Shown here piece after piece: positions 7,139-49,549 of a stretch of 64,000 bases of DNA (positions are counted from its first letter, which is position 1; the number at the start of each line of letters is the position of its first letter). Origin of the DNA: Candidatus Moraniibacteriota bacterium (GTDB taxonomy: Bacteria; Patescibacteriota; Minisyncoccia; Moranbacterales; UBA1568); assembly GCA_049290235.1 (NCBI GenBank), contig JBATNG010000034.1, positions 3,686 to 67,685 on the forward strand, given 5' to 3'. A program made the translations under genes and the position numbers. The notes beneath the pieces were generated by a model that had not been told where the DNA came from, ran no database searches, and saw only the letters and a program-made list of their open reading frames with translations.

Positions 7139-7243
7139 ATGAACTGGCCACGAGCAACCTGTAACCAACAACAAGCACAGAATATCCTGTTTCCTCAGAA
7201 AGACGAAGAAGCTACCAGCTAAATCTCTACCAGCTAAATCTCT

Positions 7244-7444
7244 ATGACCCTCGACCAAGACTCGCGGAAGAAACTCGGCCGCATCGACTACAAGGACGCG
7301 TATTTCCTCCGCCGTTTCCTCAATTCCCAAGGAAAGATCTATCCGCCGAAGCGGTTTGGCCTGACTTCGACTGAGCAGCGCAATCTGGCGCTCGCGATCA
7401 AGCGCGCCCGGTTCATGGCACTTATCCCCTACGTGGTGAAATAA
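7244..7444 (+). CDS. rpsR: 30S ribosomal protein S18
   Basis: 'IDYKDAYFLRRFLNSQGKIYPPKRFGLTSTEQRNLALAIKRARFMALIPY'. Confidence 0.9.
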   Translation: MTLDQDSRKKLGRIDYKDAYFLRRFLNSQGKIYPPKRFGLTSTEQRNLALAIKRARFMALIPYVVK

Positions 7445-7489
7445 TCAACCAACGACCAACGGCTGACAACCTACAATCAATACTTTTGT

Positions 7490-7849
7490 ATGGAACAGTT
7501 TCGGTTTTTGGATTGGCCGGTGTATCGATCCGCCCAAGAACTTTTTACTCTCGTTCTGGGATTGGTTCAGGCGCTGCCAAAAGAGTACCGGTATGACTTG
7601 GGGAGTCAACTGGTGCGCTCATCATTCTCGGTAGTGCTCAATATCGCCGAAGGAAGTGGTAAGTCGTCAGACAAAGAGATGAATCGTTTCTTGGAGATTT
7701 CCCTTGGCTCACTCTATGAGACACTTGCAGCAGCGGAGACTCTTCAGGGGATGAAGCTCGTCAGTAGAGAAGAGTTCGTTCTCGTGCATGAGAGAGCCAG
7801 CGGGATCGCAAAACAAATTGGTGGTTTCAAAAAGAAACTAGATTCATAA
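7490..7849 (+). CDS. Four-helix-bundle protein (23S rRNA intervening-sequence protein / Avd-like family)
   Basis: 'SFSVVLNIAEGSGKSS...FLEISLGSLYETL' is a typical PF05635-type motif. Same family as the DGR Avd at 44357-44776. Confidence 0.7.
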   Translation: MEQFRFLDWPVYRSAQELFTLVLGLVQALPKEYRYDLGSQLVRSSFSVVLNIAEGSGKSSDKEMNRFLEISLGSLYETLAAAETLQGMKLVSREEFVLVHERASGIAKQIGGFKKKLDS

Positions 7850-7886
7850 GTCGTCGGTTGTCGGTTGTAGTTAGTAAGTTATTTTT

Positions 7887-41101: not shown

Positions 41102-42019
41102 ATGTACGACTGTATTATCGTGGGCGGAGGTCCAGGTGGCGTTGCGGCGGGGGTCTATGCAGCGCGGAAGCAGATGAAGACGCTTTTTATCACCGAAAAC
41201 TTTCTCAGTCAGTCCGTCGTGTCAGCGTCGATCGAAAATTGGATCGGGACGGTGACGATTCCGGGCTGGGAATTCGGTCAGGCGCTCGAGAAGCATTTGC
41301 GTGCCCAAGAAGGACTCGAGATAAAAATCGGCGAACGTGCCACGAGCTTGGCTGGGCTTCCAGCTGGCGGCTACCGGATCACAACCGATAAGGGTGACTA
41401 CGAGACCAAAACCCTCATCATTGCGACTGGTGGTCGGCACCGTCACTTGGATATTCCAGGCGAAGAAAAGTTCAATGGCAAGGGTGTCGTGTACTGTTCG
41501 ACCTGCGATGCGCCGTTCTTTCGCGCAAAGAAAGTCGCTGTCGTCGGGAGTGGCAATTCCGCCCTGGAAGCCGTCGAGGACCTCTTGCCCTATGCAAATG
41601 AGATCGTGCTGGTGGTCCGAGGGAGCGAGTTGAAGGGCGACAAGGTAACGCAAGAAAAAATCCTCGCTTCACCGAAAGTGAGTGTCATCTACAATGGCGT
41701 CACGCAAGCGATTCTCGGCGAGGAGAAAGTCACCGGCCTGCGCTATCAGGATAAGGACACAACCGAATCGAAAGACATCACCCTCGACGGTGTCTTCGTC
41801 GAAATCGGCATGGTGCCGAACACCGAATTTGCAAAGGGTGTACTCGAGCTCAATGAGCGCGGGGAGATCATCCTCGATACGCGCCGGGCGACGACTTCGA
41901 AGCCCGGCATCTTCGCGACCGGGGACGCGACCGATGCACCGTACAAGCAGAACAATATCTCGACTGGCCTCGGTGTCACCGCTGCGCTGGCCGCGTATGA
42001 CTTCGTGAGAAAGGGGTAG
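41102..42019 (+). CDS. trxB: Thioredoxin reductase
   Basis: 'YDCIIVGGGPGG', redox 'CSTCDAPFF', 'VAVVGSGNSALEAVEDL'. The last ~20 codons are duplicated at 42963-43060. Confidence 0.9.
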   Translation: MYDCIIVGGGPGGVAAGVYAARKQMKTLFITENFLSQSVVSASIENWIGTVTIPGWEFGQALEKHLRAQEGLEIKIGERATSLAGLPAGGYRITTDKGDYETKTLIIATGGRHRHLDIPGEEKFNGKGVVYCSTCDAPFFRAKKVAVVGSGNSALEAVEDLLPYANEIVLVVRGSELKGDKVTQEKILASPKVSVIYNGVTQAILGEEKVTGLRYQDKDTTESKDITLDGVFVEIGMVPNTEFAKGVLELNERGEIILDTRRATTSKPGIFATGDATDAPYKQNNISTGLGVTAALAAYDFVRKG

Positions 42020-42076: not shown

Positions 42077-42358
42077 ATGTACTCTATGAGTCAGAATGCT
42101 GCTTTGAATTCATTCGTCAAGTCTCGACCGTACCTTGTGTGGTATGTGAAAGACATCGAACAATTGTCCGAATCATCGATCGTCGAGCATACGTTGAACT
42201 ATGGAAATTGGAGGGACGTTCAGGAACTCGTAGCGCTTCTCGGTAGGGAGAAAACAGCCGAAATCTATTCTTCCCAGAGAAAAGGGAAGAGAAATAACTA
42301 CCGACCCACTATTTCTCACTATTTCGATTTGTATTTCTCCCGTCATGCTACATGCTGA
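42077..42358 (+). CDS. Small ORF upstream of and overlapping the AbiEii-like toxin; putative cognate antitoxin
   Basis: 93 aa, 14-nt overlap with the toxin start, low GC. No recognised domain. Confidence 0.35.
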   Translation: MYSMSQNAALNSFVKSRPYLVWYVKDIEQLSESSIVEHTLNYGNWRDVQELVALLGREKTAEIYSSQRKGKRNNYRPTISHYFDLYFSRHATC

Positions 42359-42962
42359 AATCCTTTCAGAAGGACAGAGAGCGCTGTTGCCGCTGTTGCG
42401 GAAGCTCCATGATAGTTTCGGTTTAGTCGGTGGTACGGCTATCGCGCTCCATATCGGCCATCGCGAATCCGTTGACTTCGACCTGTTCACCACTGAACCG
42501 CTTCGCACCGACATGCTCCGAAGTGCCATCGTGTCTTTCGGGAAAAATATCCGTACGCTCGTCGATGAATCAGACGAGTACACGACGCTTGTCGATGGGG
42601 TGAAACTCACATTCTTGCGGTATCCTTTCCCGCTCGACTACCCCGTCGAATGGGACGGTATCGCAAGGCTTCCGGATCTTCTCACGCTTTCGGCGATGAA
42701 GGCCTACGCGCTTGGACGGCGAGCCAAGTGGAAGGACTATGTCGATCTCTGTTTTGTTATGGAAACAGGGCATTCATTACGCGATATCGCGCAGAGAGCC
42801 GAGAGTATCTTCGGCGACGAGTTCAATGAGAAGAATTTCCGTTCGCAACTTTCGTACTTCGACGATGTCGATTATTCTGAGGCGGTCATCTACCGTCCCG
42901 GCTTCGAGCGAAGCGATGAGGATATGCGGACGAAACTGACCGAGTTCAGTCTGGGTGAATAG
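42345..42962 (+). CDS. AbiEii/AbiGii-family (DUF1814) nucleotidyltransferase toxin
   Basis: N-terminal 'FGLVGGTAIALHIGHRESVDFDLF' is the DUF1814 NTase signature (GG[ST]AL...R.S.D[IL]D). Confidence 0.65.
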   Translation: MLHAEILSEGQRALLPLLRKLHDSFGLVGGTAIALHIGHRESVDFDLFTTEPLRTDMLRSAIVSFGKNIRTLVDESDEYTTLVDGVKLTFLRYPFPLDYPVEWDGIARLPDLLTLSAMKAYALGRRAKWKDYVDLCFVMETGHSLRDIAQRAESIFGDEFNEKNFRSQLSYFDDVDYSEAVIYRPGFERSDEDMRTKLTEFSLGE

Positions 42963-43323: not shown

Positions 43324-43893
43324 ATGTCTCAAATCGCAGAATTCCACGCCGCCATCCTGCAAAACCTCCCGGATCTCACTTCGCAAGAAATGCAGGAATG
43401 GATTGGACCGCGCCGTGCGACCTTACAGGCGGCGTTGGCACGGGTGTTGGCTGGGTACCGCCAAATTGCCCTTGATTACCGCCTCACACTCGAGCAGATG
43501 ATCGCCCTCGGTTGCTACGACAGGAAGAACAGCGACATTACGGCCGAACGCTTCCCTTTGGTGGGCAGCGGCGTGGCTGAGCTCGAGACGAAGCCATTTC
43601 ACTTCAACAAGCGTGTCTCGTCGGAGTCAGCAATCCAGCTGATCGCGGCCGCCGACCCGGTACGTCCTTGGCAAGTAGCCAAGATCGAGCACGGGCTCCG
43701 CTATGGGGCCGCCTATCCAGAGGAACAGCGCCAGTTCCCGATCGTGATGCTCGGTTCTTCCTGCCAGGTGTACGGCAGTCGCTGCGTGTCAGTTCTCTGC
43801 ACGGATGTCTCCGAGCGGGACCTGGACCTCGACTTCTGGGACGGTGAGTGGTTTGCCCGCTGCCGTTTCCTGGCCGTTCGCCCGGTGCTCTGA
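43324..43893 (+). CDS. DGR target (variable) protein, 189 aa; the VR encodes the C-terminal ~40 residues
   Basis: Good RBS (aggaga). The C-terminus '...GSRCVSVLCTDVSERDLDLDFWDGEWFARCRFLAVR' is encoded by the VR. Confidence 0.8.
   Translation: MSQIAEFHAAILQNLPDLTSQEMQEWIGPRRATLQAALARVLAGYRQIALDYRLTLEQMIALGCYDRKNSDITAERFPLVGSGVAELETKPFHFNKRVSSESAIQLIAAADPVRPWQVAKIEHGLRYGAAYPEEQRQFPIVMLGSSCQVYGSRCVSVLCTDVSERDLDLDFWDGEWFARCRFLAVRPVL
43755..43881 (+). repeat. DGR variable repeat (VR)
   Basis: 127-bp ungapped alignment to TR 44231-44357 with 18 mismatches, all where TR has A (VR has G or T). The last 22 nt, ctgccgtttcctggccgttcgc, are identical (IMH-like). Confidence 0.85.
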
Positions 43894-43935
43894 ACCTGGA
43901 GCCTTTGGGACAGCACTCTGTTCCTTTGGCCCTTC

Positions 43936-43972
43936 CCGCCGTATGCATGCATACGGCGGTCTTCTTTTTTCT
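43936..43972 (+). terminator. Perfect 24-nt palindromic hairpin plus T-run downstream of the VR
   Basis: ccgccgtatgca|tgcatacggcgg followed by tcttcttttttctg. Confidence 0.5.
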
Positions 43973-44230
43973 GATACAGTAGAGATGACAAATGAAAAAT
44001 CCATGGTTACGGCTGTGGGTAATTTGTCCGCATGCTGCAGAGTGAGAGTCGGGACGGCTACGGCTTTCTCGAGTGCGCTCGGCGGAATGTTCTCAAAAAC
44101 AGAGACAAGTTGGTGTGAGGTGCTCGGTAACAGATAAGGTTACGAATACGATACAGCCCTGAGAATTTTCCTCTGCTTTTCGGTGGGTGTATGGATCAAG
44201 GGGCGGTGGTACGGATGGTACCCTACACAT

Positions 44231-44357
44231 TTCTTCCTGCCAGATGAACGGCAATCGCTACGTGTCAGTTCTCAACACGAATGACTCCAAGCGGAACCTG
44301 AACCTCAACAACTGGGACGATGAGTGGAATGCCCACTGCCGTTTCCTGGCCGTTCGC
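44231..44357 (+). repeat. DGR template repeat (TR)
   Basis: The counterpart of the VR. The ORF predicted over it (44187-44387), Asn-rich with AAY codons, is not a gene. Confidence 0.85.
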
Positions 44358-44776
44358 TACTCTTCCTGTTTCTCCTGGTATGTGTGACCAGGAGTTTTGT
44401 TTATGAGTTGGCGCCTCCATCCGCCGAGCATCCGACCAATCTCCCCAAGTTGTTCGGCGAGGTAAGCGTACTTGCCATTATCGAGCGCTCGGGTATCCCA
44501 AGCGAGCTGTAATAGGAGTTTCAAAAGGTCAACCCGCGAGATGGCCCTGTTGATGAGGAGTTGCTTTTCGGTTGTTTGTGAGTAGCTCGCCAGGAAACAA
44601 TACTCGATAGTGAGGAGAAATATATCATCAATCTTCGATCCTATGGTGAAGCGCCGGGCTTTCGGAAAGTGGACGAGATATTCCTGCCAAATACCGTACG
44701 CGTCTTTGAGCTTGAGTACTACGGGGATGAGCTTTGGTTGCAGAAGGTTCGGGGGGGGGGTATTCTGTGAGGGCAT
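44357..44776 (-). CDS. avd: Avd-like accessory variability determinant (four-helix-bundle)
   Basis: C-terminal ~120 aa 'LKDAYGIWQEYLVHFPKARRFTIGSKIDDIFL...AISRVDLLKLLLQLAWD...EIGRMLGGW' match the Avd/PF05635 pattern. Start uncertain (M111 or M117 of the long ORF). Contains a C10/G10 tract encoding PPP. Confidence 0.65.
   Translation of the reverse strand: MPSQNTPPPNLLQPKLIPVVLKLKDAYGIWQEYLVHFPKARRFTIGSKIDDIFLLTIEYCFLASYSQTTEKQLLINRAISRVDLLKLLLQLAWDTRALDNGKYAYLAEQLGEIGRMLGGWRRQLINKTPGHTYQEKQEE
44751..44760 (+). repeat. G10 homopolymer at the avd 5' end, 20 nt upstream of the RT start codon
   Basis: Ten G at 44751-44760. Confidence 0.9.
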
Positions 44777-44779
44777 ACA

Positions 44780-45781
44780 ATGAAAAAACTCCATAACGCT
44801 TATCAGAATATCATCTCTGTCGAAAATTTGCTCGATGCGTGGCGAGAATTTGTGAGGGGGAAGAAAAAGAAGTGCGATGTGCAGGCGTTTCAGTATGCGC
44901 TCACTGATAATATTCTTGCACTTCATGCTGATTTGAAAAGCAAGGCCTATGTCCATGGTGGTTACGAGGCCTTTAAGGTCTCTGATCCGAAACCCCGCCA
45001 TATTCACAAAGCCTCCGTCCGCGACCGGATCCTCCATCACGCCTTGTATCGTGTCCTCTATCCGTACTTCGACCGGGCCTTCATCGCTGACTCGTACTCT
45101 TGTCGGATTGGGAAGGGAGTACACCGATCCCTCAATCGTTTTCGATCATTTGGCCGGAAAGTATCGAACAATCACACTCGAACGGTCTGGATACTCAAGT
45201 GTGATGTCAGAAAGTGCTTTGCTTCGGTCGATCAGGACGTTCTCATGAACATCCTCAAAAAACACATTGCTGATCCGGATACACTCTGGCTGCTGGAAAG
45301 AGTCATTACTAGCTTTGATTCAGGAACACCTGGCCGAGGGCTTCCTCTTGGCAATTTGACTTCGCAACTCCTCATCAATATCTATCTGAATGAGCTCGAC
45401 CAGTTTGTGAAACAGCAACTGAAAGCGAAGTACTATATCCGGTATGCAGATGATTTCGTCGTTTTTTCCAAAAATAAAGACGAGTTGAAAAATATACTCA
45501 TTCTGATGGATGTGTTTCTCAGACTCAATCTCTGCTTCGAACTTCATCCGGACAAAGTGTTCATCAAAACCATCGCAAGCGGTGTGGACTTCCTCGGCTG
45601 GGTGCATTTCCCTGATCACCGTGTCTTGCGGACGACGACCAAGCGAAGGATGTTTCGGAGATTGAGTGAGAAGAATATCGAGTCGTATCTCGGATTGCTT
45701 TCGCATGGGAATGGGTTGAGGTACGAGATAGAGAGAATAGCTTTGACAGAGGGGGTAAAACCTGCTATACTGGGAGAGTAA
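44780..45781 (+). CDS. DGR reverse transcriptase
   Basis: RT domains with 'LPLGNLTSQLLINIYLNELD' (the DGR-type [ILV]GxxxSQ motif) and the catalytic 'YIRYADDFVVF'. 333 aa, typical DGR RT size. Confidence 0.9.
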   Translation: MKKLHNAYQNIISVENLLDAWREFVRGKKKKCDVQAFQYALTDNILALHADLKSKAYVHGGYEAFKVSDPKPRHIHKASVRDRILHHALYRVLYPYFDRAFIADSYSCRIGKGVHRSLNRFRSFGRKVSNNHTRTVWILKCDVRKCFASVDQDVLMNILKKHIADPDTLWLLERVITSFDSGTPGRGLPLGNLTSQLLINIYLNELDQFVKQQLKAKYYIRYADDFVVFSKNKDELKNILILMDVFLRLNLCFELHPDKVFIKTIASGVDFLGWVHFPDHRVLRTTTKRRMFRRLSEKNIESYLGLLSHGNGLRYEIERIALTEGVKPAILGE

Positions 45782-47329: not shown

Positions 47330-48343
47330 ATGCAGTGGCTGATTCGGAAAATCGGTATCGATTTGGGGACGGCGAATACGCTCGTGTTTGTGCCGGGCGA
47401 GGGGGTCGTCATCAATGAACCCTCGGTCGTCGCTATTTCCCTTTTTGAGAACAAAGTCCTCGCTGTCGGCAATGAAGCCAAAGAGATGCTCGGACGCACG
47501 CCGGATACGATTGTCGCCAGTCAGCCGCTCCGGGATGGAGCGATCGCTGATTATCGAGTGACTGAGGCGATGCTCAAGTACTTCATCAACCGGGTGATGG
47601 GCCGAGTGCGTTTCATCCGTCCCGAGGTTGTGCTTTCAGTCCCGGCGGGCATCACTTCGACTGAGCGGCGTGCGGTCGTCGATGCGGCGATGAAGGCGGG
47701 AGCCAAAGCGGCCTATGTCGTGAAAGAGCCTGTCCTCGCGGCGATCGGCGCAGGCATCCCAATTCACACCGCGCAGGGAAACATGATCATCAATATCGGC
47801 GGCGGGACGTCCGAGATCGCCATCATCTCGCTCGGGGGTATCGTCGCCTCGCACAGCGCTCGGGTCGGCGGGAACAAGATCGACCAAGCCATCAGCGACT
47901 ATATCAAGCGCAAGTACAGTCTGGCCATCGGCGACCGGACAGCCGAGGAAGTGAAGATCGGCATCGGTTCGGCGATCGCTCAGGTGAAAGAAGACCACAT
48001 GGAAGTGCGGGGCCGTGACCTGATGGGCGGGTTGCCAAAGACGATCACCTTGTCGTCGAACGAAGTGACGGAAGCGATCCAGGATGAACTGCGTGAGATC
48101 ATCCATGTCATCAAGCAGGTGCTCCAAGAGACGCCGCCAGAGCTCGCGTCGGATATCATGGACAAGGGCATGGTGCTCTCGGGCGGGACGGCGCAGCTGC
48201 GCTATCTCGACCAGCTCATCGCCAAGACCATCAATGTGCCGTGCTATGTCGCGGATGATCCGGCATTTTGTGTGGTGAAGGGGACGGGTATCGTCCTCGA
48301 AAATCTCGATACCTACAAGCGCAGCTTGATGCTTGGTAAATAA
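47330..48343 (+). CDS. mreB: Rod shape-determining protein MreB
   Basis: 'IGIDLGTANTLVFVPGEGVVINEPSVVA', actin fold. Confidence 0.9.
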   Translation: MQWLIRKIGIDLGTANTLVFVPGEGVVINEPSVVAISLFENKVLAVGNEAKEMLGRTPDTIVASQPLRDGAIADYRVTEAMLKYFINRVMGRVRFIRPEVVLSVPAGITSTERRAVVDAAMKAGAKAAYVVKEPVLAAIGAGIPIHTAQGNMIINIGGGTSEIAIISLGGIVASHSARVGGNKIDQAISDYIKRKYSLAIGDRTAEEVKIGIGSAIAQVKEDHMEVRGRDLMGGLPKTITLSSNEVTEAIQDELREIIHVIKQVLQETPPELASDIMDKGMVLSGGTAQLRYLDQLIAKTINVPCYVADDPAFCVVKGTGIVLENLDTYKRSLMLGK

Positions 48344-48382
48344 CGAACAACGAACAACCGACAACGTACAACAAAATTCAGA

Positions 48383-49549
48383 ATGGGGTTGAGGTTGTTG
48401 GCGGTAAGTTATAAGTTGTCGGTTATGAAAATTGGTATTGATGCTTCGCGGGCCTTCCTTCGTCGTCGGACGGGGATAGAGGAGTACAGTTATCAGGTCA
48501 TCCGTCATCTCCGAGCGGAGCTTCGGGATCAGACGGTGGTTCTCTATGTCCGGAAGAAACTTGAAATCCGAAACTCGAAACTCGAAATGACGGTGCCGGA
48601 TATTGATTTCGACCTCCCGCCGGAGTGGCAGGTGAAGGGCTTGTGGGCACCGCGCTTCTGGACGCAAATTCGACTCTCGCTCGAGATGCTCTGCCATGCG
48701 CCGGACGTGCTCTTTGTCCCAGCTCATACGGTTCCGCTCATCCATCCTCGGAAAACAGTGGTCACGGTTCACGGGCTCGAGTATGAATTTTCGCCTGAGA
48801 GCTATGGGTTCTGGGAGCGGCTCTATATGCGCTGGTCAATCCGGTTTTCGGTGCGAGTGGCTGACCGGGTGATCGCCGTTTCCGAAAATACCAAACGCGA
48901 TCTGATGCGGCTGTACGCTGTGCCAGAGAAAAAGATCCAGGTTATTTACGAAGGTTTGAGTCAACCTACAACCTACAACCTACAACCTACGACCGAAAGC
49001 GAGCCCCCATACTTTTTATTTATCGGTCGTTTGGAGACGCGGAAGAATATCGTGCGGATGATCGAGGCGTTTGAGATATTCAAAGCGAAGACAGGTCTAG
49101 CCCATACGCTCGTCCTCGCCGGTAAACCGGGTTTCGGATACGAGGCGATTCGCTACAAGCTACAAGCTACAAGCTACAAGCAAGATATTCATGAGCTCGG
49201 GTACGTGAGCGAAGAAGAGAAGTGGGAATTATTGAAAGATGCTGAAATATTCCTGTTCCCGTCGCTGTACGAGGGTTTCGGCTTGCCAGTGATCGAAGCA
49301 CAGAGTGTCGGTGTGCCGGTCATTACTGCCAATACATCATCACTCCCGGAGGTGGCGGGGGAGGGCGCGGTCCTGGTGAACCCGCTCGACTCAGGCGAGA
49401 TAGCCGAGGCGATGGAGATGCTGGTCACCGACCCCGAGAAACGGGCTGATATAATAGAAGAAGCGACCCGGAATGTGGATCGCTTCGGTTGGGCGCAGTG
49501 CGCCAAGGGGGTGGCTCAGGCGGTTGGACGACCCTCGTTATCGGGATAA
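48383..49549 (+). CDS. Family 4 (GT-B) glycosyltransferase containing two in-frame heptanucleotide tracts
   Basis: C-terminal 'FLFPSLYEGFGLPVIEAQSVGVPVITANTSSLPEVAG'. Repeat tracts at 48963-48990 and 49153-49180. Confidence 0.8.
   Translation: MGLRLLAVSYKLSVMKIGIDASRAFLRRRTGIEEYSYQVIRHLRAELRDQTVVLYVRKKLEIRNSKLEMTVPDIDFDLPPEWQVKGLWAPRFWTQIRLSLEMLCHAPDVLFVPAHTVPLIHPRKTVVTVHGLEYEFSPESYGFWERLYMRWSIRFSVRVADRVIAVSENTKRDLMRLYAVPEKKIQVIYEGLSQPTTYNLQPTTESEPPYFLFIGRLETRKNIVRMIEAFEIFKAKTGLAHTLVLAGKPGFGYEAIRYKLQATSYKQDIHELGYVSEEEKWELLKDAEIFLFPSLYEGFGLPVIEAQSVGVPVITANTSSLPEVAGEGAVLVNPLDSGEIAEAMEMLVTDPEKRADIIEEATRNVDRFGWAQCAKGVAQAVGRPSLSG
48963..48990 (+). repeat. (AACCTAC)x4 heptanucleotide tandem repeat inside the GT4 gene
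   Basis: Perfect 4 x 7 nt; encodes PTTYNLQPT. Confidence 0.9.
49153..49180 (+). repeat. (GCTACAA)x4 heptanucleotide tandem repeat inside the same GT4 gene
   Basis: Perfect 4 x 7 nt; encodes YKLQATSYK. Confidence 0.9.

Follow-up and report, generated by a model that had tools for sequence, protein, structure and literature searches.

Heptanucleotide arrays in a glycosyltransferase gene

We analysed a 64,000-nucleotide stretch of contig JBATNG010000034.1 from a Candidatus Moraniibacteriota bacterium (hereafter the window), in which a glycosyltransferase family 4 (GT4) gene carries tandem arrays of a 7-nt unit. The gene has matches to the Pfam families Glycos_transf_1 and Glyco_transf_4 (glycosyltransferase family 4 / group 1) and lies in an envelope-related gene order, murA-mreB-GT4-GT4-holB-POTRA protein-PMT_2. 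Its start codon is ATG 48425 (MKIGIDASRAF), in agreement with orthologues and with the NCBI call P0002; another ATG at 48383, taken by the open reading frame (ORF) finder, falls inside a leader hairpin and is probably not the start in use. With the start at 48425, the mreB–glycosyltransferase spacer is 81 nt long (48344-48424), not 40 nt. An earlier note on this DNA, made from the sequence alone, had described a 40-nt spacer built of heptamers, and the heptamers themselves are real: Tandem Repeats Finder (TRF) reports AACGAAC x4.4 with 83% matches at 48342-48372, where they form one arm of a hairpin. The features of the locus are as follows.

48344..48372, + strand: CA-rich arm of the leader, degenerate heptamers cgaacaa cgaacaa ccgacaa cgtacaa (TRF)
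48389..48424, + strand: GT-rich arm of the leader, ggttgag gttgttg gcggtaa gttataa gttgtcg gtt, abutting the start codon
48425..49549, + strand: GT4-family glycosyltransferase gene, 374 aa (ORF, Pfam, orthologue starts, NCBI call, AlphaFold)
48556..48587, + strand: site A, decayed GAAACTC-like array, x4.6 with 80% matches (TRF), encoding KLEIRNSKLEM
48962..48994, + strand: site B, (CAACCTA) x4.7, encoding QPTTYNLQPTT
49152..49181, + strand: site C, (GCTACAA) x4.3, encoding RYKLQATSYKQ

The two intact arrays agree with the pair of fourfold heptanucleotide tracts already recognized in the GT4 coding sequence. At site B an exact lag-7 run covers 48962-48990 (29 nt), which TRF extends to 48994 as CAACCTA x4.7 with 96% matches, and at site C a second exact run covers 49152-49181 (30 nt; GCTACAA x4.3, 100% in TRF). 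These are the only exact period-7 runs of at least three copies in the 64-kb window, and exact runs of at least three copies at periods 5, 6 and 8-12 are absent from it; by chance, the number of self-matches of at least 22 nt expected at one lag is 64000 x 4^-22, or ~4e-9. The tracts had been called in-frame, a term that does not fit, as the ORF is merely open across the arrays and each heptamer unit is translated in all three frames, giving peptides with a 7-residue periodicity (QPTTYNL, YKLQATS). The expectation that gain or loss of a unit frameshifts the gene holds in simulation, where adding or removing one unit reduces the 374-aa product to 209-258 aa.

The AlphaFold model of the enzyme has a GT-B fold (predicted local distance difference test, pLDDT, 84.9). 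Site A is located at a beta-hairpin tip (DSSP E51-63/E66-70 in the model), site B in a disordered linker between the two Rossmann domains (pLDDT < 50 at residues 197-205), and site C at a helix end or loop of the C-terminal domain. These modelled positions indicate that the arrays are restricted to places where the protein would tolerate an arbitrary peptide. Searches around the locus detected no sigma-70 promoters, intrinsic terminators or Rfam families, and because promoter- and terminator-like sites were not found the glycosyltransferase gene is probably co-transcribed with murA-mreB.

Period-7 arrays are concentrated in one gene across Moranbacteria

From 406 matches in species-representative genomes we took the 80 orthologous loci with the highest scores, most with ~10 kb of flank on each side, for comparison with the window. 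The 81 species-level loci comprise 1.38 Mb of searched sequence, and 33 metagenome-contig loci bring the total to ~115. Exact tandem runs of at least three copies in the 80 loci number 54 at period 7 and 0-5 at periods 5, 6 and 8-15. When near-perfect arrays are defined by at least 19 of 21 lag matches, 60 of the 62 at period 7 fall within the 1.1-kb glycosyltransferase gene or its 120-nt leader and 2 lie in the remaining ~1.3 Mb, with 0-2 near-perfect arrays of other periods in the 81 species-level loci. At lower stringency, 92 period-7 arrays are inside the gene or leader versus 23 outside, and those outside mostly occupy leaders next to start codons. The gene-specific pattern is repeated in the 33 further independent metagenome loci.

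Within the gene, the arrays recur at the same sites across species with differing units. Five are in the leader, 4 at site A (residues 45-56; perfect arrays in L027, L041, L054 and L056), 30 in 26 species at site B (residues 179-195), and site C (residues 241-254) carries arrays in 21 species. Their median length is 35 nt, and the 37 distinct units are all A-rich and G-poor on the sense strand. Similarity between units of the same genome is weak (2.17 versus 2.58 mismatches, p = 0.035). The earlier note had held that its proposal would be refuted if the repeats were conserved coding sequence in orthologues, and the differing units at shared sites show that they are not. Translational bypass or intron-like excision of the arrays was considered and rejected, as all intact alleles are open and in frame across them.

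Imperfect heptamer arrays also occur in the leaders of rpsR, nrdR and mreB (~20 kb is visible per genome). In the window, a CA-rich heptamer-like array (agctaccagctaaatct x2) at 7205-7245 abuts the rpsR start codon, and the series ctactcc ctaccag ttaccag ctacaag ctaatag ctaaccc at 28345-28402 abuts the nrdR start, both with no obvious Shine-Dalgarno sequence; comparable CA-rich heptamer arrays precede mreB in several other species. Heptamer arrays in or before the second GT4 gene, ~1.5 kb past the glycosyltransferase start (L098:3516-3552; L109 and L110:3527-3565), suggest that this neighboring gene may carry arrays too in some lineages. A rare non-heptamer case is AACAATGA, repeated x4 as a period-8 array shortly after the glycosyltransferase gene in two related contigs (L094:3178-3213, L096:1380-1415).

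Arrays turn over between near-identical alleles

Comparison of closely related alleles reveals flanks that are 90-100% identical around unrelated arrays (L020/L026/L011/L018, L036/L037, L027/L029, P0080/P0153, P0031/P0142). Between such alleles the unit has often changed entirely at sites A, B and C, and the length at sites A and B; the L036/L037 arrays differ by 21 nt, and P0080/P0153 by a 29-aa insert. On these alignments the arrays turn over far faster than their flanks. Site B length has modes at 23 and 30 residues, three units apart. At site C, length and a K-x-Q-x-S pattern are kept, with CAA recurring at 7-nt intervals and variation confined to the unit's other four positions, and such re-homogenization at constant length would be explained most simply by successive -1/+1 slips that pass through frameshifted (OFF) states.

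Recombination also moves arrays between lineages, as judged from mosaic identity profiles with breaks at arrays: identity between L083 and the window is 95-100% up to site B (around gene position 570) and 52-87% after it. Abrupt changes of identity at arrays are also seen among L011/L018/L020/L026, where the arrays or their surroundings coincide with recombination breakpoints. In L108 (1369-1595), unrelated RsmA/KsgA-like sequence replaces the glycosyltransferase C-terminus past the site C array (AAATTCA x4), a junction that reflects either rearrangement at the array or chimeric assembly through a shared array.

Single-unit losses split the gene in natural populations

A protein search with the N-terminal half of the enzyme returned many truncated products on long contigs, with ends clustering just past site B or C. 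The intact locus L060 has 5 copies of the CAGGAAT unit at site B, and the loci L123, L124 and L125, each from its own MEGAHIT assembly, have 4; over 1,095 nt the sequences are otherwise 100% identical, and the 4-unit allele is split into products of 253 + 109 aa. In a second species, the only difference between L126 and L127 from a point 100 nt before the gene to the end of site B is a single CAGTCAA unit, of which L126 has 3 copies and L127 has 4, and its absence puts L126 out of frame. At site C, L127 in turn lacks 7 nt (50 nt versus 57 nt in intact genes) and is frameshifted there; site C spacing is 19 residues in 77 of 81 orthologues.

The natural split genes encode products of 253+109, 201 and 259 aa, and each of the five split alleles examined, including L128 and L129, regains a full-length ORF when one unit is added. 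Unit changes can thus both destroy and restore the frame, a check that the earlier note had proposed: natural losses split the gene, and an added unit would repair it. Frameshifted alleles are the assembled consensus in several samples, which indicates that loss of the enzyme is tolerated. The truncation in L120/P0164 was tried as a heptamer slip and rejected, being due to homopolymer indels. Judged from the compared alleles, slipped-strand frameshifting operates in this gene family. Of the slipped-strand phase variation originally suggested for the locus, what stands is the occurrence of single-unit frameshifted alleles in two other Moranbacteria species; the known copies of the window strain all have the same unit number.

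Leader hairpins, four-helix-bundle genes and a nested palindrome

The GT-rich second half of the spacer is a near-complement of the CA-rich first half, with an exact 10-bp complement between the arms (aaccgacaac/gttgtcggtt). Together they form an 81-nt imperfect hairpin that ends at the start codon, and the RNA fold of 48335-48435 has an energy of -24.9 kcal/mol (z = -3.2), with 48340-48426 as the folded element. The upstream heptamers of the window are too degenerate to slip readily. Similar leader hairpins with a CA arm and a GT arm built of heptamers are found in L003, L041, L048 and L064/66. Across species the spacer ranges from 1 to 476 nt, and of the 47 whose length allowed folding, 25 have z < -2. 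Between L064 and L066 (99.1% identity), the leader array changes by exactly 14 nt, or two units. Among 82 leaders, the one that best complements the intragenic array is the gene's own in four cases (the window, L003, L048 and L060); RNA pairing between leader and array as a general rule was rejected, the mean rank of the own leader being 0.45 (p = 0.21).

In L083, L084, L086, L027, L031 and L053, the leader arms enclose an ORF of 94-126 aa from the TIGR02436/PF05635 four-helix-bundle family, a family related to the Avd protein of diversity-generating retroelements (DGRs) (PMC10053308). Of the 8 four-helix-bundle genes that the fetched loci and the window contain, 6 immediately precede the glycosyltransferase and have heptamer arms on both sides. 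The window leader is an 'empty' hairpin with a loop of ~10-16 nt and no PF05635/TIGR02436 ORF; the window's own four-helix-bundle gene stands elsewhere:

7490-7849: TIGR02436/PF05635 four-helix-bundle gene, between rpsR and efp (82 bits)

This gene belongs to an element at 7445-7886 whose two arms, one of CA-rich heptamers (7445-7480) and the other GT-rich and complementary to it (7850-7886), pair on either side of the ORF in the minimum-energy fold, in the manner of 23S rRNA intervening sequences. The 3' arm of the L083/84/86 leader, CAACCTACAAGCTA, consists of the units of the window's two intragenic arrays.

A 21-nt palindrome, CCCGCCTGCCGGACGGGCAGG, lies in frame within the site B arrays of three species, with the array continuing on both sides. 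Its copies are:

L027:10572-10592 and L027:10625-10645
L059:10569-10589
L089:540-560

No further copy was found among 122 loci, and the window has none. The arrays, the Avd-like four-helix-bundle genes and the nested palindrome could conceivably form one lineage-specific repeat system, a proposal we consider improbable, in which a pentameric four-helix-bundle protein would recognize ~5 x 7 nt of RNA or DNA and generate, homogenize or read the arrays. If true, array turnover and ON/OFF switching would be enzymatically targeted and would not result from replication slippage.

A diversity-generating retroelement in the window

The window also carries a DGR at 43324-45781, between trxB and murA, two genes that stand side by side in other species (for example L121). 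Its parts are:

43755-43881: copy resembling a variable repeat (VR), at the end of ORF 43324-43893
44231-44357: copy resembling a template repeat (TR), 86% identical to the VR-like copy
within 44357-45124: bAvd-like match, in a minus-strand ORF
44780-45781: reverse transcriptase

The co-occurrence of this DGR with the arrays had been thought noteworthy, and we detected no link between them. The VR/TR-like pair 43755-43881 / 44231-44357 is the only such pair in the window, which holds no second copy of the glycosyltransferase arrays of the kind expected for a DGR target, and orthologous arrays are present in L120-L122, in which the trxB-murA position is without this DGR. A connection between the retroelement and the arrays was rejected on these two grounds. 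An 80-nt direct repeat (89% identity) at 41936-42015 and 42969-43048 copies the trxB 3' end and flanks an AbiEii-like toxin ORF (42345-42962), an arrangement that suggests an inserted island, comprising a toxin-antitoxin module and the DGR, with a duplicated target.

Interpretation of the arrays

We favor, with moderate confidence, the reading of a contingency-type locus common to the Moranbacteria lineage, whose heptanucleotide simple sequence repeats (SSRs) are the two intact tracts, the decayed third one and the repeats of the leader. During replication, the nascent and template strands would misalign by one 7-nt unit within an array of 4-5 units; because 7 is not a multiple of 3, such a slip would truncate the glycosyltransferase before or within its C-terminal donor-binding domain (OFF), and a compensating slip in the same array would restore the frame (ON). 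Repeated -1/+1 cycles would homogenize each array, so that the unit sequence turns over while the site stays fixed, and only three surface segments that tolerate any peptide (beta-hairpin tip, interdomain linker and helix end) would serve as hosts. Leader arrays could change unit number without a frame constraint and in doing so alter the hairpin beside the start codon. We infer further that the arrays of the window slip at a useful rate and that switching is reversible and selected, for example by varying an envelope glycan against phages or host cells.

Several observations weigh against a switch. The allele comparison proposed in the earlier note finds a single unit number in the window strain, where L001, L002 and the NCBI metagenome-assembled genome (P0002) are identical, and in its closest relatives, L084 (93% nucleotide identity) and L083, which have arrays of the same lengths and differ by point substitutions only; the gene is ON throughout, and the assembled window allele is itself in the ON configuration. 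The eight predicted ±1-unit OFF products are absent from a collection of 15 billion proteins, in which the strain is represented by ~4 contigs, and a metagenome scan for population variants of the window species returned no relative above 72% identity. All 80 orthologues from the genome collection are intact, but taking the 80 top scores out of 406 favors intact genes. The window arrays have only 4-5 units, compared with 6-38 in the heptanucleotide switches of Haemophilus (PMC2651432). The clear slippage events are all deletions, with no +1 allele or reversal among the compared alleles. In L128 and L129, A7-8 runs adjoin the array and a 1-nt indel could be the cause, and other truncations do result from homopolymer or 1-nt indels (L120; P0167 and P0168, 1-nt or poly-A). 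The best PDB relatives of this GT4 enzyme are GlgM and MshA (E ~1e-15), and the product it makes is only putatively exposed at the cell surface.

That the arrays are selfish or neutral microsatellites, a lineage-specific mutational product resembling the short tandemly repeated repetitive (STRR) sequences of cyanobacteria, with frameshifted alleles being deleterious mutations or incipient pseudogenes, is the main rival explanation, though an unlikely one. The imperfect arrays in the rpsR, nrdR and mreB leaders and in the arms around four-helix-bundle genes would make period 7 a genome-wide mutational preference, and the confinement of arrays to disordered or surface segments, the deletions-only record and the invariance of the window strain all agree with it. 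Neutrality predicts, however, that the best arrays should be intergenic, yet 60 of 62 near-perfect arrays lie in one gene and the coding sequences of the many flanking genes contain none. Re-homogenization of site C arrays at constant length and the occurrence of independent OFF alleles at consensus frequency in several populations further argue against this explanation. Differences in unit number could also be assembly or sequencing artefacts, since tandem repeats can be mis-assembled and homopolymer errors or 1-nt indels plainly underlie several of the other truncated alleles, but this is extremely improbable: the arrays (~35 nt) are far below the final k-mer (k141 contigs), three samples independently yielded the 4-unit allele together with neighboring arrays that are intact and identical to those of L060, two samples processed with one pipeline have different unit numbers (L126 and L127), and arrays are found in metaSPAdes, MEGAHIT and Logan assemblies alike.

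Two further explanations assign the arrays a function other than switching. In one, which we hold to be improbable, three-unit slips, unit turnover and recombination would diversify three surface peptides in frame, and frameshifts would be a by-product; in-frame replacement of whole site A, B or C peptides between near-identical alleles, the site B length modes three units apart at 23 and 30 aa, and mosaic identity profiles that break at arrays, as between L083 and the window, are what it would produce. Why a cytoplasmic GT-B enzyme should vary a disordered linker is not obvious, however, and the K-x-Q-x-S pattern kept at site C points to a peptide that is constrained there and not diversified. 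A unit of 3n nucleotides would moreover vary peptides without frameshift risk, as does the 9-mer PTD repeat of Gracilibacteria (PMC6851277), and the exclusive use of a non-3n unit argues that frameshifting is the point. In the other, the ~35-nt (5 x 7) arrays would be a nucleic-acid platform bound by a trans factor, such as a pentameric Avd-like four-helix-bundle protein, or would base-pair with the GU-rich arm of the leader and so govern translation or cleavage by RNase III; taken jointly, these two forms are very improbable. The median array length of 35 nt, the position of 6 of 8 four-helix-bundle genes directly upstream of the glycosyltransferase with flanking heptamer arms, and the own leader ranking as best complement among 82 in the window, L003, L048 and L060 are consistent with such a platform, whereas the complementarity does not hold across loci in general (mean rank 0.45, p = 0.21), the 37 units differ between and within genomes, 16 species have arrays and no leader (spacer 1-11 nt), and in most loci the four-helix-bundle gene is not nearby and Rfam gives no match.

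Relation to known repeat systems and biological meaning

SSR contingency loci count as a hallmark of pathogens adapted to a host, and a full-text literature search found no report of SSR on/off switching or heptamer arrays in candidate phyla radiation (CPR) bacteria/Patescibacteria. Cyanobacteria carry heptanucleotide STRR sequences with nested small dispersed repeats (SDRs), reportedly described by Mazel and colleagues in 1990 and by Elhai and colleagues in 2008 (cited in PMC3116915). The Moranbacteria arrays resemble these in their lineage-specific 7-nt preference, in palindromes nested within arrays and in the presence of many PF05635 genes in the same genomes, and the palindrome CCCGCCTGCCGGACGGGCAGG in particular recalls the SDRs in heptamer arrays of Nostoc. 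They differ in that cyanobacterial STRRs are dispersed and mostly intergenic, whereas the perfect Moranbacteria arrays are concentrated in one coding gene and cause frameshifts. With 23S rRNA intervening sequences that carry a PF05635 ORF, the elements in relatives and at window positions 7445-7886 share a long stem of complementary arms around a four-helix-bundle ORF; unlike those sequences, they occur in mRNA leaders and have heptamer-built arms, and the copy at the window glycosyltransferase is ORF-less.

Haemophilus influenzae provides the closest parallel in unit length, with TGAAAGA x13-38 in hmw promoters, AATTTTG x14 inside hmw1A and AACAACC x1-13 at TonB-dependent receptor genes (PMC2651432). 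As in that species, 7-nt units are found both upstream, where they act on expression, and in the ORF, where they frameshift (PMC2651432); the Moranbacteria arrays are much shorter, form inverted hairpin pairs in the leader, and belong to another gene family and organism. The pathogen glycosyltransferases controlled by SSRs, with tetranucleotides of the lic2A/lgtC/lex2 type in H. influenzae and homopolymers in Neisseria and Campylobacter, share with the present gene an over-represented intragenic non-3n repeat in which a unit change frameshifts and unit number varies between strains (PMC2651432). Those genes have units of 1-5 nt and one tract near the 5' end, in contrast to a 7-nt unit in only 4-5 copies and three mid-gene arrays at permissive loops; the Moranbacteria sites are further distinguished by conservation with unit turnover over an order-level environmental CPR lineage, and by a reversal not seen here. 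Among CPR bacteria, a Gracilibacterium has a hypervariable gene with a 9-mer (PTD) repeat for which slipped-strand mispairing has been invoked (PMC6851277). Repeat-based variability in a CPR bacterium is common to both, while the PTD repeat, being 3n, is always in frame and varies the protein without switching it off (PMC6851277).

The mechanism is thus the one known from Haemophilus, Neisseria and Campylobacter; the locus differs in the short length of the arrays, their three mid-gene sites, the conservation of site and not of unit in an environmental lineage, and the association with hairpins and four-helix-bundle genes. One glycosyltransferase, putatively associated with the envelope, carries slippage-prone arrays at three shared sites across an order-level group of environmental, probably episymbiotic bacteria, and frameshifted alleles predominate in some natural populations. 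The locus is a clean natural example of long-lived repeat arrays that persist by unit turnover, and it ties heptamer arrays to the unexplained PF05635 four-helix-bundle genes. If switching is adaptive, these ultra-small cells would stochastically vary a glycan, plausibly in answer to pressure from phages or host cells.

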